Source: an uncultured Pseudomonadales bacterium (GTDB lineage Bacteria; Patescibacteriota; Microgenomatia; UBA1400; CAYNBK01). Taken from it: a DNA stretch of 25,780 nucleotides. The number at the start of each line of letters is the position of its first letter. Positions within the stretch are counted from its first letter, which is position 1. The translations under genes and the position numbers were made by a program. The notes beneath the pieces were generated by a model that did not search any database, was not told where the DNA came from, and worked only from the letters and a program-made list of their open reading frames with translations. The stretch is from the NCBI GenBank assembly GCA_964395485.1, contig CAYNBK010000001.1, positions 1 to 25,780 of the forward strand. The letters run 5' to 3'. Shown piece by piece: positions 4,634-24,695 of this stretch.

Positions 4634-4738
4634 ATGAAACGGGTAAAAAAATTAGGCTATCGGACATCTAGTATTTTCAGGCGAAATAAAAAACAGCAAG
4701 TCGCTAAAACCCGGGCTAAAGGAGAAAAAAGAAAATAA
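4634..4738 (+). CDS. Putative 34-aa very basic small protein (not in ORF track)
   Basis: MKRVKKLGYRTSSIFRRNKKQQVAKTRAKGEKRK, 15 K/R, fills the permease-tig gap. No SD seen. Confidence 0.35.
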   Translation: MKRVKKLGYRTSSIFRRNKKQQVAKTRAKGEKRK

Positions 4739-4769
4739 ACTATTTTAGTTTTTATTTTTTAATATTTTT

Positions 4770-4778
4770 TGATATACT
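4770..4778 (+). promoter_or_regulatory. Extended -10 promoter, 6 nt before the tig ATG
   Basis: TGaTATACT-tccagc-ATG. Confidence 0.6.
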
Positions 4779-4784
4779 TCCAGC

Positions 4785-5711
4785 ATGAATACAAAAACAA
4801 AAAACGGAAACGATAATAAAAAAGCCGATACTGACAAAAAAGTAAACAGCCAAAAAAATGATTACAAGCTCACCTGGCTTCAGGACAAAACTTTTGAACT
4901 GGAGCTTACTGTCCCAAAAAGTGAAATTTCCAAAGCTTATAAAGAAGTACTGGCAGAATTTGCCAAAAACACCGAACTTCCCGGTTTTCGCAAGGGTATG
5001 GCGCCAGCCAAATTGGTAGAAGACAAGGTAGGGAAAAACAAAATATATAAGCATATTATTGACCATGTTGTCCCACTGCATTACAGCAACGCCGTCAGAC
5101 AATACGGCCTTAAACCGATTGTTAATCCAAAAATAATTGACTTGAAAATGCCAGAAGAGGCAGATTGGCTGATAAAGCTTAGTTCCTGTGAAGCCCCGCA
5201 AATAAAGCTGGCCGACTACAAAAAAGAAGTTGCCGCCATAAATGCCAAAGATAAAATCTGGGTACCGGGCAAAGACGCGACGGAAAAGAATAAACCGGAC
5301 CGCGGCCAAAAACTGACCGCAATAGTCAAAAAACTGCAGGAAAGTATCGAAGTAAAACTGCCGCAGATGCTTTTGGATTCGGAGCGCGACCGCATGCTTT
5401 CCCGCTTGCTAGCGGAAATAAATAAACTTGGGATTACGTTGGACCAATATGTTCAAGCTAACGGTAAAACAGTAGAAAGCCTAAAAAAAGAATATGAAAA
5501 TGTCGCCCGCAGAAACCTGCAAACCGAGTTTATCCTGCAAGAAATAGCCATGACCGAAAAAATTCAAGTTTCAGAGGAAGAAAAAACAGCATACTTGTCC
5601 CAGATAAAAGATGAAGAAAGCAAAAAACAACTATCTACTCCTGAACAGCAAGCATACCTCGGGCTAAGCCTAGTAAGGCAAAAAACTATTGACTTTTTGC
5701 TTTCCATTTGA
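4785..5711 (+). CDS. tig: Trigger factor, short form apparently lacking the PPIase domain
   Basis: Ribosome-binding signature LPGFRKGMAP, C-terminal SurA-like domain (VKLPQMLL...LDQYVQANGKT...ILQEIAMTEKIQVSEEE). Only 308 aa. Confidence 0.9.
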   Translation: MNTKTKNGNDNKKADTDKKVNSQKNDYKLTWLQDKTFELELTVPKSEISKAYKEVLAEFAKNTELPGFRKGMAPAKLVEDKVGKNKIYKHIIDHVVPLHYSNAVRQYGLKPIVNPKIIDLKMPEEADWLIKLSSCEAPQIKLADYKKEVAAINAKDKIWVPGKDATEKNKPDRGQKLTAIVKKLQESIEVKLPQMLLDSERDRMLSRLLAEINKLGITLDQYVQANGKTVESLKKEYENVARRNLQTEFILQEIAMTEKIQVSEEEKTAYLSQIKDEESKKQLSTPEQQAYLGLSLVRQKTIDFLLSI

Positions 5712-5742: not shown

Positions 5743-6426
5743 ATGGACGATATTTTTTCAAAAAACTACCCTCTTACAAACAGCAGCAAGAAAAAAAAGA
5801 CTGCGGTTCAATCTCAAAATTTTATTGAGGCTGTTAGGGATATGGGCGGATCTATCGGCGGTCAGGTAAAAAACCTTGGCTCAGATGTTGCCAGGGGGGC
5901 AATAGATTCACTCTTTGGCAAGGCACCAAGCAATCAAGACAATCAAAACCCAAATAATTATCAAACACCGCAAAACCCCAATCAACCTTTTAATTTTGAG
6001 GAGTATCTTTTTAACCGCGAAAAGCAAATCCGACAACAGGAGCGAAGTTTTGCCTCTCGTATGAGGGAAAATGAAAAAGTATTGTATAATAGGGGAGATG
6101 TAGAGACCAAAAAGCAAATTCGGTGTGTACAGGAAGAGATCGTCAAAATCATCAAAGAAAGCAAAGAATTAGCTACGGAATTGATCGAAGCGGAAAGAAC
6201 CGTCAGCACCACCATTGTTTCTGCTGGCACTTATCATCTAAATTTTTTTGCCAGAGTAAGAAACCTGCTTATTATCGCCAGAAAAAGACTGAGTGAATCT
6301 AAAAGCTGGCTTGAGCTTTTTAACTCCAGACAGCACCGCAAAGGTCTATACTGGAACAGTGTTAAAAAATCCGGCACCAAGTTTATGCTCTCACAAGAGC
6401 GCTATATGGCAACCCAGGCCGGCTAA
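5743..6426 (+). CDS. Hypothetical protein (possibly DUF5660-like, from memory and unverified)
   Basis: 227-aa ORF with an N/Q/P-rich linker, a coiled-coil segment and C-terminal KKSGTKFMLSQERYMATQAG. Confidence 0.6.
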   Translation: MDDIFSKNYPLTNSSKKKKTAVQSQNFIEAVRDMGGSIGGQVKNLGSDVARGAIDSLFGKAPSNQDNQNPNNYQTPQNPNQPFNFEEYLFNREKQIRQQERSFASRMRENEKVLYNRGDVETKKQIRCVQEEIVKIIKESKELATELIEAERTVSTTIVSAGTYHLNFFARVRNLLIIARKRLSESKSWLELFNSRQHRKGLYWNSVKKSGTKFMLSQERYMATQAG

Positions 6427-8357: not shown

Positions 8358-8702
8358 ATGAGCCAAGATTTTATTACATCACCGGGGAAAAAAGAATCAA
8401 TGTTAAAAACCTTTAATAGGGGAGTTATTGGCGGAGTAGGCTGGTCTTTTGGCGTCTGTATCGGTTCGATTGTTCTTTGTCTGATTTTTATTTACTTTTT
8501 TAACTATTTTCACTGGGGAAAGTATATACAGTCATATTTTGAAGAACTATTGAAACAAACTACAGCCCAGCAAGTTCAAACTCAGAAAGAGTTATTAAAT
8601 ACTATTATACCGGGTGCAAAAACCGGCACACTTAATATCCCGACAGATTTTTATCCAGAAAATATAGACGAATTACTCAATAACGCTCGAATTAAAAACT
8701 AG
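8358..8702 (+). CDS. Small membrane protein (possibly DUF5665-like, unverified)
   Basis: SD AGGAGG 8346-51, 6 nt spacing. Gly-rich hydrophobic stretch GVIGGVGWSFGVCIGSIVLCLIFIYFF. Confidence 0.75.
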   Translation: MSQDFITSPGKKESMLKTFNRGVIGGVGWSFGVCIGSIVLCLIFIYFFNYFHWGKYIQSYFEELLKQTTAQQVQTQKELLNTIIPGAKTGTLNIPTDFYPENIDELLNNARIKN

Positions 8703-17997: not shown

Positions 17998-18669
17998 ATG
18001 CCAATCCGCCAAACGCCGCTTGTTACCAGCCATTATTACCATATTTTTAACCGCAGTATTGCCAAGATCCCCATTTACCTTTCCATTCCCGATCATTTAA
18101 GGTTTTTAGAAATAATGCATTTTTACCAATACCAAAACCCGCCTTTAGCCTATTCTCATTTTAAAGACTTGGCCAAAGAAAGGCAGGCAAAATTTATAGC
18201 TGGTCTTAGTAAAAACAAACAAACTCTTGTCGATGTCATTTGCTTTTGCCTTATGCCAAATCATTTTCATTTAATTCTGAAACAAAACCAGGACAAAGGC
18301 ATTTCGGATTTCTTAGGTAATATCCAAAATAGCTATGCCAAATATTTTAATCTCAAAAGAAAACGGACGGGTTCATTGTTTCAAAGCGGTTTTAAAGCCG
18401 TTCTCATCGAAGACGATGATCAACTAAAACATGTCTCGCGTTATATTCACCTCAATCCTTATACCTCAATGTTAATCTCAAAGCCTGAAAACCTAAATCA
18501 ATATTTATGGTCTTCATTTTCTCAATACACTGGTATAAAAAATGGTTTTTGCCAGTGCGGAATAATTTTGGATCAATTTAAAAGCCGGGCAGAGTACAAA
18601 TCTTATGTACTTAATATGGCGGATTATCAAAAAAAATTAGGGGAGATCAAACACTTAATAAAAGAGTAA
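17998..18669 (+). mobile_element. HUH/Y1 transposase (REP-associated tyrosine transposase / IS200-like)
   Basis: YYHIFNR, FCLMPNHFHLIL (HUH), GSLFQSGFK, catalytic RYIHLNP, YLWSS. No tnpB nearby. Confidence 0.88.
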
Positions 18670-20680: not shown

Positions 20681-22711
20681 ATGGCTGTATTAACTCTCCA
20701 AACTCCAGTCTCCGAGCTTTTTATGGTGGGGGAGCCTTATGCTAAAAAGCTGAAAAAACTGGAGATAGAAACTGTTGCCGATCTGCTTTATCATTTTCCG
20801 GCCAGGTATGAAGATTTCAGCCAGCTTACTCTTATCAGCCAATTGAAAGCAGGACAAGTCTCCACTATCCGCGGACAAGTCCTTGTTTTCCAAAATCTTT
20901 TTACCCGTTTTGGCAAAAATATCCAAAAAGGAGTTTTTGCCGACCAGAGCGGACAGATAAATTTTATTTTCTTTAACCAACCTTATCTGAAAAATATCTT
21001 CCGGCCGGGGGCAAAGCTGGCGCTGGCCGGAAAAGTAGAGCCGGACAATACCGGCCTTATTTTTAAAAACCCGGAGCATGAAATACTGAAAACAAATAGT
21101 TTAATGAGCGTCCACAGCGGTCGCTTGGTCCCAATTTATCCGGAAACGGCCGGTGTCAGCTCCAAATGGCTGCGCTCCCGTATTTTTCCCCTGCTTTTTA
21201 AAAAAGTTGTCGAAATCGAGGACTGGCTCCCGTCGCCGATACTGGAAAAAGAGGACTTCCCAAGCCTAGAGGAGGCCATAAAACAAATTCATTTTCCTGA
21301 AAGCGAAAAAAAAGCCACAGAGGCCAAAGACCGCCTGTCTTTTGACGAACTGTTTCTACTGCAGTTGAGGGCATTTATCAAGCGAAAAGAGTGGCAAAAA
21401 AGTGCCAAAGCCATACCAATGAAACAGTTTCCGGATAAAATACAGGCTTTTATTAAAAAACTGCCATTCCAACTGACCAATGACCAAAACAGAGCAGTTG
21501 TAGAAATAATTCAAGATTTAACAAGAAATTTTGCCGCCAACCGCTTATTACAAGGAGATGTCGGTTCGGGAAAAACTGTCGTAGCGGCTATTGCCGCTTA
21601 TTTGACTTATTTAAACGGGCACAACACTTACCTTATGGCGCCAACCGAACTTCTGGCCCAGCAGCACTACCAAACCTTTAAACAAATGTTTGCGCAAGAA
21701 AACATTTGTTTAAGCCTGATTACTTCAAGCCATAAAGAAAAGCAAAAAGAGGCAAAAATAGTCATCGGCACCCATGCCCTGCTTTTTAGAAAAAACAAAA
21801 CAAGCCCAAAACTTTTAATAATCGACGAACAGCATCGTTTCGGCGTGGCCCAGCGCAGCCAACTTTTATCATTTAAGCCCCGCCCCCACTTGCTTTCCAT
21901 GACTGCTACCCCTATCCCGCGTACTATGAGCCTGGCTTTTTATGGAGATATGGATCTTTCCCTTATCAAACAAATGCCTCTTGGCAGGAAAAAAATAAAA
22001 ACCTGGCTGGTTCCGATAGAAAAAAGACAAGCCGCCTACAAGTGGCTAGAAAAACGAATAAAAGAAGATAAAAGCCAAGCTTACATAGTCTGTCCGCTGA
22101 TCGAAGAATCCCAGTTTGAAAAAATGAAAGATATCAAGGCCGTAACGATCGAGTACGAAAGGCTACAAAAGAATGTTTTCCCCGGGCTAAAACTTGCGCT
22201 TCTTCACGGCAGGCTTAAAAGCCCGGAAAAAGACCGAATAATAAACGATTTTAAAAAGAAAAAATATGACATTCTGGTTTCTACGCCTGTTATCGAAGTG
22301 GGGATAGATATTGCCAATGCCGCCATCATGCTTATTGAGGGGTCTGAACGCTTCGGGTTGGCCCAACTTCACCAACTGCGGGGAAGAGTGGGAAGAAGCA
22401 AAAAACAGTCATACTGCCTGCTTTTTACCAGCGCCGGGGTCAAGCAAGACAGCCGCCGATTGAAAGCAATGGAGACAAAAAATTCCGGCTTTGAACTGGC
22501 GGAGCTGGATTTAAAAATCAGAGGACCGGGAGAAATATACGGACTGCGCCAATCCGGCAGAATAGAGCTAAAAATTGCCGATCTTAGCGACAGCAGACAA
22601 CTTCTGCTGGCAAAAAACTACGCTGGGAATTTTAGCAAAAATCTGCAAAAATTTCCCCTCTTGCATGAAAGGCTAAAAAACCTTAAAATAACCGATGTTA
22701 AGCCAAATTAA
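20681..22711 (+). CDS. recG: ATP-dependent DNA helicase RecG
   Basis: Wedge domain (HFPARYEDFS), LLQGDVGSGKT, MAPTELLAQQH, IDEQHRFG, MTATPIPR, QLRGRVGR, DLKIRGPGE. Confidence 0.97.
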   Translation: MAVLTLQTPVSELFMVGEPYAKKLKKLEIETVADLLYHFPARYEDFSQLTLISQLKAGQVSTIRGQVLVFQNLFTRFGKNIQKGVFADQSGQINFIFFNQPYLKNIFRPGAKLALAGKVEPDNTGLIFKNPEHEILKTNSLMSVHSGRLVPIYPETAGVSSKWLRSRIFPLLFKKVVEIEDWLPSPILEKEDFPSLEEAIKQIHFPESEKKATEAKDRLSFDELFLLQLRAFIKRKEWQKSAKAIPMKQFPDKIQAFIKKLPFQLTNDQNRAVVEIIQDLTRNFAANRLLQGDVGSGKTVVAAIAAYLTYLNGHNTYLMAPTELLAQQHYQTFKQMFAQENICLSLITSSHKEKQKEAKIVIGTHALLFRKNKTSPKLLIIDEQHRFGVAQRSQLLSFKPRPHLLSMTATPIPRTMSLAFYGDMDLSLIKQMPLGRKKIKTWLVPIEKRQAAYKWLEKRIKEDKSQAYIVCPLIEESQFEKMKDIKAVTIEYERLQKNVFPGLKLALLHGRLKSPEKDRIINDFKKKKYDILVSTPVIEVGIDIANAAIMLIEGSERFGLAQLHQLRGRVGRSKKQSYCLLFTSAGVKQDSRRLKAMETKNSGFELAELDLKIRGPGEIYGLRQSGRIELKIADLSDSRQLLLAKNYAGNFSKNLQKFPLLHERLKNLKITDVKPN

Positions 22712-22786: not shown

Positions 22787-22939
22787 ATGCCACCACTACC
22801 AAAAAGAAAAATATCCAGCCGGCGGAGCGGTAAAAGAAGGCAAAATCACCGGGTAAAACTGCCCAATATGGTAAAGTGCAAATTTTGCAACACCCTAAAA
22901 TTAAGCCATCAAATCTGTAAAAACTGTGGTAAATATTAA
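22787..22939 (+). CDS. rpmF: 50S ribosomal protein L32, Zn-ribbon type (not in ORF track)
   Basis: MPPLPKRKISSRRSGKRR...CKFC...HQICKNCGKY, 50 aa. Confidence 0.95.
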   Translation: MPPLPKRKISSRRSGKRRQNHRVKLPNMVKCKFCNTLKLSHQICKNCGKY

Positions 22940-23299
22940 GTGAAAACTGCCTCAGATCCCCGCCATTTACACCGTGAAAAACTAGTCCAAAATTTGTATA
23001 GTTATTCTTTTAGCACAAAAGGAACAGATTTAAAACTTGTTAAAGAAATACTTGACAAGCTTCCTGTTATCGATCATAACATTACTAAGGCCGCTTCGGA
23101 GTGGCCGATAGAAAAAATAAACAGGCTTGACTTGGCAGTATTACGGCTGGCTGTGTTTGAAATACTCAGCGGCAAAACACCTGTTAAAGTGATTGTAGAC
23201 GAAGCGATAGAACTAGCAAAGCAATACGGCAGTGAAAAATCGCCCCAATTTGTAAATGGTGCGCTTGGCGCAATCCTAAAAAAACATGGATATAAATAA
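22940..23299 (+). CDS. nusB: Transcription antitermination factor NusB
   Basis: RLDLAVLRLAVFEI, VIVDEAIELAKQYGSEKSPQFVNGALG. GTG start abuts the rpmF stop. Confidence 0.94.
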   Translation: MKTASDPRHLHREKLVQNLYSYSFSTKGTDLKLVKEILDKLPVIDHNITKAASEWPIEKINRLDLAVLRLAVFEILSGKTPVKVIVDEAIELAKQYGSEKSPQFVNGALGAILKKHGYK

Positions 23300-23522
23300 A
23301 ATAAACAGCATTGTGGCCGACAGCCTGGGTATTAACTTGGGTGAAATCAAAGAGGAGGCTAATTTCTTTGAAGATTATAACTGCGACCAAATCGAGATAA
23401 ACGATATGATGCTTAAAATTAACAACGAATTACAAGTACAAATCCCAGAAAACGAATTTCAGGCGCTCCAAACGGTTTCCGACTTATATCTTATACTGGA
23501 AGAGTATTCCGATGAAGTTTAA
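23286..23522 (+). CDS. Acyl carrier protein-like protein lacking the conserved DSL serine
   Basis: Acidic 78 aa, aligns colinearly with ACP by eye (ANFFEDYNCDQIEI vs E. coli ASFVEDLGADSLDT). acp-rnc synteny. Confidence 0.8.
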   Translation: MDINKINSIVADSLGINLGEIKEEANFFEDYNCDQIEINDMMLKINNELQVQIPENEFQALQTVSDLYLILEEYSDEV

Positions 23523-24201
23523 GAACCAAAAAACTCCAACTATTCCCGTTTTCAAACAAAAGAAGTTGCTGGAACAGGCCTTTGTCCACCGATCCTATCT
23601 AAATGAACAAAGGCAGATCCGAGAATCAAATGAAAGACTGGAATTTTTGGGCGATGCTGTACTGGAGCTGGTATGTTCGCTTTATTTATTTAAAAATTTT
23701 CCCAGCTATCCTGAGGGGAAAATGACCAATATCCGGTCAAAACTGGTACAAACGTCTACTTTGGCTTGGGCCGCTCTCAATTTAAAACTGAGCGAAAAAC
23801 TGCTATTGTCCAAGGGCGAAAAAAACGCCAACGGCAATCAAAACCCCTCTATTTTGGCCGATACCTTTGAAGCACTGTTGGGAGCTATATACCTAGACGG
23901 AGGCTATCCAAAAGTAGAGAAATTTATCTACCTGGCCCTTATCCTGCCGTTTTTCTCCAATTTAAACGAAGTTGCCCCTCATGACTATAAAAGCCTGCTC
24001 CAAGAAGAAGTTCAATCATTAAAAATGCCCGCCCCAAACTACCGGGTAATAAAAGAAGTTGGTCCTGATCATAGCAAAAAATTTGTTGTGGAGGTTTCTA
24101 TTACTGACTTAAAAAAGGCCGATGGAGCCGGCAGTTCCAAACAAAAAGCCGAGCAGGAAGCGGCCAAAAAGGCTCTTGAGAATTTTTTTAAAAAAGGATA
24201 A
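23512..24201 (+). CDS. rnc: Ribonuclease III
   Basis: NERLEFLGDAVL, ADTFEALLGAIYLD, dsRBD with YKSLLQE, GPDH, SKQKAEQEAA. Confidence 0.97.
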   Translation: MKFKNQKTPTIPVFKQKKLLEQAFVHRSYLNEQRQIRESNERLEFLGDAVLELVCSLYLFKNFPSYPEGKMTNIRSKLVQTSTLAWAALNLKLSEKLLLSKGEKNANGNQNPSILADTFEALLGAIYLDGGYPKVEKFIYLALILPFFSNLNEVAPHDYKSLLQEEVQSLKMPAPNYRVIKEVGPDHSKKFVVEVSITDLKKADGAGSSKQKAEQEAAKKALENFFKKG

Positions 24202-24211
24202 AATACTTCTT

Positions 24212-24457
24212 ATGTTAAAAATCAGATTGCTTCGAACCGGCAAAAAAAAGCAGGCGAGTTACCGGGTAATCGTCAAAGAGGCGAAAGATAAGCGGGATGG
24301 TACTTACCGCGAGTGTATCGGACAATATTATACTGTAAGCGCTCAAAATAAAACTAAAATAGATAAAAGCCGCTATGATTATTGGGTGTCAAAAGGCGCT
24401 CAGGCCACCCGAACAGTAAGAAATATTTACCAAAGGCTATATGGAAGATCTGATTAA
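24212..24457 (+). CDS. rpsP: 30S ribosomal protein S16
   Basis: MLKIRLLRTGKKKQASYRVIV, YWVSKGAQAT. The true start is ATG 24212, with TAAAAT 7 nt upstream. Confidence 0.96.
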   Translation: MLKIRLLRTGKKKQASYRVIVKEAKDKRDGTYRECIGQYYTVSAQNKTKIDKSRYDYWVSKGAQATRTVRNIYQRLYGRSD

Positions 24458-24695
24458 ATATCTTGCTTCACAAATCGTCAGCAAGCCGGAAGAAATAAAA
24501 CTAAGAACAGAAGAAAAAGACAGAATATATTTGTACTACCTGACCGTTTCACCGGAAGATATGCCCCGCATTATCGGCAAAAAAGGTAAAACCATCCAAA
24601 GCTTGCGTCATTTAATCCGGATCCGCTCATTTAAGGAAAAGAAAAAAGCTGTCATTGTACTAGAGGAGGAGCCGGAAAAAGCTAGCGGGGACTAA
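24441..24695 (+). CDS. khpA: KH-domain RNA-binding protein KhpA
   Basis: DMPRIIGKKGKTIQSLR (GxxG loop); rpsP-khpA synteny. Confidence 0.88.
   Translation: MEDLIKYLASQIVSKPEEIKLRTEEKDRIYLYYLTVSPEDMPRIIGKKGKTIQSLRHLIRIRSFKEKKKAVIVLEEEPEKASGD

Follow-up and report, generated by a model that had tools for sequence, protein, structure and literature searches.

The window, by which we mean the whole stretch of 25,780 nucleotides that was analysed, carries a co-directional gene cluster anchored upstream by recG (676 aa; 20681..22711); all window coordinates given here are on the + strand. The gene for ribosomal protein L32, rpmF (50 aa; 22787..22939), ends directly before the start of nusB (119 aa; 22940..23299). 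Between nusB and rnc (RNase III, 229 aa; 23512..24201) lies a short open reading frame (ORF; 23286..23522) for an acyl carrier protein (ACP)-like product of 78 aa (MDINKINSIVADSLGINLGEIKEEANFFEDYNCDQIEINDMMLKINNELQVQIPENEFQALQTVSDLYLILEEYSDEV) with a pI of 4.05, 18 acidic and 3 basic residues, and without the phosphopantetheine serine. The last 14 nt of nusB overlap its start and the first 11 nt of rnc overlap its end; the ORF, its length and these tight overlaps are present in the window gene list as an earlier note on this DNA had described them. The cluster continues downstream with rpsP (ribosomal protein S16, 81 aa; 24212..24457; L001 gene call, offset 20847) and a gene call for a KhpA-type KH-domain protein (84 aa; 24441..24695). 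Terminator-like sites were looked for on the + strand inside the cluster and none was found. The overlapping start and stop codons suggest that the ACP-like protein would be produced together with NusB and RNase III.

Some features elsewhere in the window were also recorded. The trigger factor (4785-5711) is only 308 aa long, with Trigger_N and Trigger_C matches and no match to a PPIase (FKBP) domain. A DUF5660 protein (5743-6426) and a 114-aa ORF without a Pfam match (8358-8702) are located amid translation genes. Flanked by a class A PBP gene and dtd is a 223-aa ORF (17998-18669) with a modest match (40.5 bits) to an IS200-like Y1 transposase over residues 55-151.

Aligned with Ser36 of E. 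coli ACP is Gln35, encoded by CAA (23388..23390), which is also the first residue of the modelled helix II. The 237-nt gene was identical in six independent assemblies (ENA, Logan, JGI), which matched over 0.7-4.9 kb of DNA each at 100% identity. A seventh assembly differed in the protein by a single unrelated change, I37V, and still had CAA at codon 35. Since CAA was found in all seven independent assemblies, Gln35 is not a sequencing error, an objection that the earlier note had itself raised. The serine is missing in relatives too, and the chance that Gln35 reflects an assembly artefact, or that the ORF was miscalled, can be regarded as negligible. The locus was found only in groundwater and aquifer DNA metagenomes, and none of the RNA sequencing runs searched contained it.

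The product matched the Pfam PP-binding family (PF00550) with 37.4 bits (gathering threshold 20.8; E 3e-9) and so belongs to it. Matches to 15 NCBIfam models, nearly all of ACPs, were under the curated cut-offs (best 53.1 vs 71); the score for TIGR00517 was 44.6 (cut-off 70.45), so that by the NCBIfam standard this is not a functional AcpP. Comparison with the PDB by phmmer gave 63 ACP chains (best E 5e-9). The alignments printed (query residues 3-69, 5-73, and 4-72) were ungapped and placed NCDQI on GADSL, bearing out both the whole-length alignment to ACP and the Gln at the attachment position that had first been noticed by eye. Judged from these matches, homology of the ORF to ACP is far beyond chance.

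An AlphaFold2 model built on a 24-sequence family alignment had a pLDDT of 90.2 and a pTM of 0.77, with helices at residues 3-14, 35-49, 55-59, and 64-74 and a less confident C-terminal end (pLDDT 75 in the last block). It replaced a single-sequence prediction that had reached only pLDDT 74 and a TM of about 0.65. The 50 best Foldseek matches listed from the PDB were all ACPs, either free or as complex subunits (TM 0.73-0.88, rmsd about 1-2 Å). The predicted structure is therefore the four-helix ACP fold, and the doubt that the fold might not be ACP-like has been answered. The acidity of the protein equals that of E. coli ACP (pI 4.05). Helix II, known as the "recognition helix", covers residues 35-49 of the model (23388..23432). 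By eye, its E37 and D40 map to D38 and E41 of E. coli, so acidity is kept there, and a second acidic patch is weakened (N46 N47 E48).

When the single protein was used as query in a word-index search, the only match was a variant with 99% identity. With phmmer, 1.84 billion cluster representatives were searched exhaustively; of the 1035 matches, none but that variant exceeded 44% identity. The aligned short matches split in two: canonical ACPs, nearly all with D-L-G-x-D-S-L, and a serine-less set of 77-84 aa (one of 93 aa) with D-[LFY]-N-x-x-x, no conserved serine and, in many cases, an EExSDE[FLIV] tail. Serine was present in 88 of 113 aligned sequences, and most of the exceptions were members of this subfamily. 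A 38-sequence subfamily alignment was made from the phmmer set and the syntenic copies. The serine column, which is among the most variable of those tallied, holds P (8), K (8), E (7), Q (4), S (4), R (3), A (2), H (1), and N (1). The D-S-L serine at the helix II N-terminus that distinguishes a functional AcpP is thus replaced by Gln35 in the window protein and occurs in 4/38 members, which by our own estimate is about what would be expected at an unconstrained surface position. Among the four Ser-bearing members, Asp precedes the Ser in at most one (P0023), depending on how an inserted residue is aligned.

Other columns of the same alignment are strongly conserved: D30 (38/38), N32 (36), G15 (36), L67 (36), V64 (34), and D or E at position 40 (37/38). 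D30 and N32 belong to the loop D30-Y31-N32 (23373..23381), the subfamily D-[LFY]-N in place of the canonical D-L-G. The acidic tail of the window protein, E72-E73-Y74-S75-D76-E77-V78 (23499..23519), fits the EExSDE[FLIV] of the Microgenomates-type branch; this tail is missing from canonical ACPs and from the WWE3-type branch. In a leave-one-out comparison, every member scored higher with the subfamily HMM than with the canonical-ACP HMM (+0.3 to +42 bits), vs a median of -35 bits for canonical sequences. On these profile scores, the subfamily is discrete; two boundary sequences of the canonical set (P0035 and P0134) are also without the serine. The members come from Candidatus Beckwith-, Gottesman-, and Woesebacteria (Microgenomates) and from candidate division WWE3, and their public names are "hypothetical protein", "Acyl carrier protein", or "Carrier domain-containing protein". 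In the literature search, whose coverage was incomplete, no paper was found that describes an ACP without the serine from CPR, Patescibacteria, or Saccharibacteria.

Two further kinds of serine-less sequence were encountered in the searches. P0162, with 93 aa and a Ser to Trp replacement, was rejected as a family member because of its differing genomic context; this ACP-like protein (P0161/P0162, DLGADWLD) is encoded at 6001-6282 of locus L012, amid unrelated unannotated genes. Four proteins of 369-437 aa (P0002, P0008, P0039, and P0066) are lipoprotein-like in having a signal-like segment at the N-terminus and a Cys, and contain two or three ACP-like domains each, in which D-S-L reads D-E-L, D-E-S, or D-W-Y. 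These domains form a group of their own among serine-less ACP domains and have no relationship to the CPR family.

The window protein does contain a DSL at residues 12-14 (D12-S13-L14; 23319..23327), in the helix-1 position as had been pointed out before. Its location inside the modelled helix I and its lack of conservation in relatives identify it as a chance match and rule it out as a relocated attachment site. Cys33 was likewise rejected as a direct thioester site: canonical DSL-bearing ACPs (P0048, P0112, and P0123) also have Cys there, reading "GCDSL", and it is present in only 10/38 subfamily members. It could still be argued from the presence of these residues that the protein is a carrier modified at Ser8, Ser13, Ser65, Ser75, or Cys33, or by an unusual transferase. 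We consider this very improbable: the DSL at 12-14 is unique to the window sequence, no conserved serine column stands out apart from Ser75 of the tail (19/38), and known transferases act at the helix II N-terminus. A literature search for phosphopantetheinyl transferases in Patescibacteria gave nothing relevant, and profile searches detected no acpS/sfp or fab genes in the 25.8-kb window.

In every subfamily member with an examined locus, the gene lies between nusB and rnc. The CPR cluster order is recG..rpmF-nusB-ACPlike-rnc-rpsP-KH(-trmD), with trmD being part of the cluster in WWE3, and pilO/N/M-like genes follow on the other strand. A broader sampling of loci was anchored on the window RNase III, which was chosen to avoid bias towards the ACP sequence, and with one genome per GTDB species it yielded 53 loci, mostly CPR. 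Ten of these were new loci with an ACP-like ORF directly upstream of rnc. Nine are CPR loci, from Microgenomates, WWE3, and Patescibacteria MAGs that are unclassified or bear doubtful labels; adding the window and loci L009 and L010 gives 12 CPR sequences, all without the serine, the column being E, Q, A, or P. The earlier note had proposed a non-carrier pseudo-ACP and an alignment of CPR homologues at the Ser36 column; with serine in neither the nusB-rnc loci (0/12) nor most of the subfamily, and with an ACP fold, that proposal is well supported and extends across the clade.

The tenth locus, from a member of the Lachnospiraceae (L048), served as a control and has the order rpmF-plsX-acpP-rnc-smc-ftsY with a canonical DLGADSL. 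The operon of B. subtilis contains acpA-rnc-smc-ftsY (PMC4838370), and an rpmF-plsX-fab-acpP cluster, sometimes including rnc, is widely conserved (PMC5049393). In the CPR loci, the ACP-like gene likewise follows rpmF and stands directly upstream of rnc. Genes for acyl-ACP enzymes (FabD/H/G/Z/I/F and PlsX) were absent from the gene calls and Pfam matches of the window and of the related CPR loci. Because the ACP-like gene occupies the position of Firmicutes acpP, with nusB in the place of plsX, it can be taken as a positional orthologue of acpP, and a vestigial acpP origin is well supported by synteny.

At about 38 further CPR loci, no ACP-like ORF was detected within 6 kb, even with the subfamily HMM. 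These belong to Peregrinibacteria/Peribacteria, Gracilibacteria, Paceibacterota, Parcubacteria, one Gottesmanbacteria genome and one Shapirobacteria genome; the last two, both of the Microgenomates group, have rpmF-nusB-rnc without the gene, the three genes abutting directly in Gottesmanbacteria and apparently also in Shapirobacteria. Absence from about 38 of about 50 sampled CPR loci points to repeated deletion or to early loss in those lineages. The gene is dispensable in CPR lineages without a copy at the locus, which argues against general essentiality.

In the same sampling, almost every one of the roughly 50 CPR loci (L014-L066), including those of Peregrinibacteria, Gracilibacteria, Paceibacterota, and Parcubacteria, had nusB directly upstream of rnc, in many cases with an overlap, and rpmF was often just before nusB; nusB-rnc adjacency looks like a CPR-wide trait. 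The labels of five TPA_asm MAGs (L015, L019, L063, L060, and L046) read Pseudomonadales, Gammaproteobacteria, Rhodothermaceae, or Dehalococcoidia. The RNase III of these MAGs shares 40-55% identity with that of the window; L015, L019, and L063 have the CPR-type order recG-(rpmF)-nusB-rnc, and in L046 and L060 only rnc was mapped. These organism labels may be unreliable, and the labels of several TPA_asm MAGs (Saccharibacteria, Pseudomonadales, and Gammaproteobacteria) were not used for taxonomic claims. At the WWE3 locus L009, a 154-aa ORF without a Pfam match (4692-5156, + strand) is located between an rsmD-like methyltransferase gene and rpmF. DUF177/YceD occurs at the corresponding position in other bacteria (PMC5049393), and this ORF may be a divergent YceD.

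A vestigial origin raises the possibility that the gene is a functionless relic, a decaying acpP remnant that has not yet been deleted and whose protein is useless. The gene evolves faster than its neighbours. Between the window and L017, the ACP-like proteins are 43% identical vs 53, 50, and 51% for NusB, RNase III, and RecG, and against the WWE3 loci the figures are 26-27% vs 44-48% for the same three neighbours. One Woesebacteria member (P0167) has no PP-binding match on record among precomputed Pfam matches. Absence at the locus from most sampled CPR lineages, including the Gottesman- and Shapirobacteria genomes with rpmF-nusB-rnc, fits a disappearing relic as well as it fits a retained function.

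Against decay, the ORF is open and of near-constant length (77-84 aa) in more than 35 clusters at 50% identity from Microgenomates and WWE3, whereas, by rough estimate, well under 1% of neutral 78-codon frames in AT-rich DNA would remain open by chance. No more than one small gap is needed to align ACP-like proteins of 22-54% identity, from genomes with RecG identities of only 36-62%; neutral sequence at such divergence would be expected to be unalignable and interrupted. What is conserved is the loop that precedes helix II, together with the hydrophobic core and acidic positions of helix II, and a new C-terminal motif has been fixed in one branch. Even the shallow alignment of 24 sequences yields a model with a pLDDT of 90. 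A useless relic is consequently unlikely, and our reading is that the gene appears to be under relaxed but real purifying selection with a changed function.

Based on the genomic and structural comparisons, the best explanation overall is probably that the gene is a degenerate positional orthologue of acpP whose product is no longer a carrier and is kept as an acidic docking protein. The ancestor would have had rpmF-plsX-(fab)-acpP-rnc, an order still found in Firmicutes. On the way to Microgenomates and WWE3, the CPR lineage would have lost the lipid-synthesis genes from the locus; nusB came to lie between rpmF and the ACP gene, which apparently stayed directly upstream of rnc. Fatty-acid biosynthesis has been reported absent in Patescibacteria (PMC12455944). 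Selection on the phosphopantetheine serine would then have ceased, leaving the column to drift. With no attachment serine, the protein should not be converted to holo-ACP and should not carry acyl chains. The ACP fold of four helices is conserved, as are a strongly negative charge, the D-x-N loop, and acidic residues in helix II, and the window's branch has in addition the new acidic and hydrophobic C-terminal tail EExSDE[FLIV]. The protein may survive as a small acidic subunit with a docking or adaptor role, which would bind a basic surface on its partner without a prosthetic group.

As for the partner, our leading guess, held with low confidence, is a component of a putative rRNA transcription, processing, or ribosome-biogenesis module encoded nearby; the ribosome- and RNA-related genes in the vicinity are those for L32, NusB, RNase III, S16, KhpA, and TrmD. 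One form of this idea is that the protein is an accessory subunit or regulator of RNase III or NusB, an acidic dock tuning rRNA processing or antitermination. Its position between nusB and rnc is invariant, the coding regions overlap or abut, and all surrounding genes are ribosome or RNA related (rpmF, rpsP, and KH, with trmD in WWE3). The adjacency to rnc, however, would be inherited from the ancestral acpP-rnc arrangement seen in Firmicutes (PMC4838370); it needs no functional explanation and is weak evidence for a functional link. Moreover, nusB-rnc is intact in lineages without the gene. An accessory role for RNase III or NusB is thus doubtful. A bolder proposal, which we hold to be rather improbable, is a CPR-specific subunit of the rRNA transcription and processing machinery, with helix II and the acidic tail binding NusB, RNase III, or an operon-encoded ribosomal protein. 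If true, it would be a bacterial counterpart of the mitochondrial ACP assembly modules, entirely independent of phosphopantetheine. SpoT, IscS, and MukB are partners of E. coli ACP, and some of these interactions depend on the holo form, which makes them weak models for a serine-less protein.

Few bacterial proteins are normally as conserved and abundant as ACP, whose serine is regarded as invariant. A CPR clade that keeps a folded acpP orthologue while the serine drifts would offer natural evidence that the ACP scaffold is worth keeping without its prosthetic group. Among the literature searched, retention of a prosthetic-group-free ACP has been reported before only in apicomplexan mitochondria. 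Loss of the serine could also serve as a simple sequence marker for lost acyl-ACP chemistry in these CPR lineages, a loss that would cover fatty-acid synthesis and phospholipid acylation of the PlsX/PlsC type and would agree with the idea that these bacteria obtain lipids from other cells. Where such genes carry the name "acyl carrier protein" in databases, metabolic reconstructions could wrongly infer lipid capacity, since the serine-less gene probably has another job than carrying fatty acids.

The family to which the protein is most directly related is the ACP of bacterial type II fatty-acid synthesis (FAS; AcpP/AcpA; PF00550, TIGR00517). The two have in common the four-helix fold (TM 0.8-0.88), the length and the pI (4.05), and they align without gaps; helix II retains acidic residues, and the gene, like Firmicutes acpP, follows rpmF and directly precedes rnc. 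In contrast to AcpP, the CPR protein has no Ser at D-S-L, has a D-x-N loop instead of D-L-G, falls below all NCBIfam ACP cut-offs and evolves much faster; no plsX or fab genes are nearby, and the window's branch adds the EExSDE[FLIV] tail.

The closest described analogue is the apicomplexan mitochondrial ACP (mACP), an ACP homologue kept after loss of type II FAS (FASII) with clade-wide replacement of the serine; in this comparison the fold and the clade-wide Ser loss of the CPR family were computed here, and the absence of FASII is taken from the Patescibacteria literature (PMC12455944), not from the window genome. In Plasmodium falciparum, the serine of mACP was replaced by Phe after mitochondrial FASII had been lost, and mACP is essential as a partner of Isd11-Nfs1 that works independently of the prosthetic group (PMC8547962). 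A BLAST search with the parasite mACP found no serine-less ACP outside Apicomplexa except in Vitrella (PMC8547962). The Plasmodium protein is eukaryotic and organellar, whereas the CPR protein is bacterial. The Phe is functional at an interface, whereas the hypervariable CPR column is probably outside any conserved contact, and the CPR gene, unlike the essential mACP, is dispensable in many related lineages. Because Isd11 is known as a eukaryotic protein, the same partner is unlikely for the CPR protein.

Mitochondrial ACP is also a structural subunit of complex I and of the MALSU1-L0R8F8-mtACP ribosome-assembly module, and in those complexes its acyl-phosphopantetheine arm is inserted into LYR proteins. 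Such an arm is impossible in the serine-less CPR protein; nevertheless, an ACP that serves for docking in non-lipid assemblies has a precedent in these complexes, and that role would fit the ribosome- and RNA-related neighbourhood of the gene described here.
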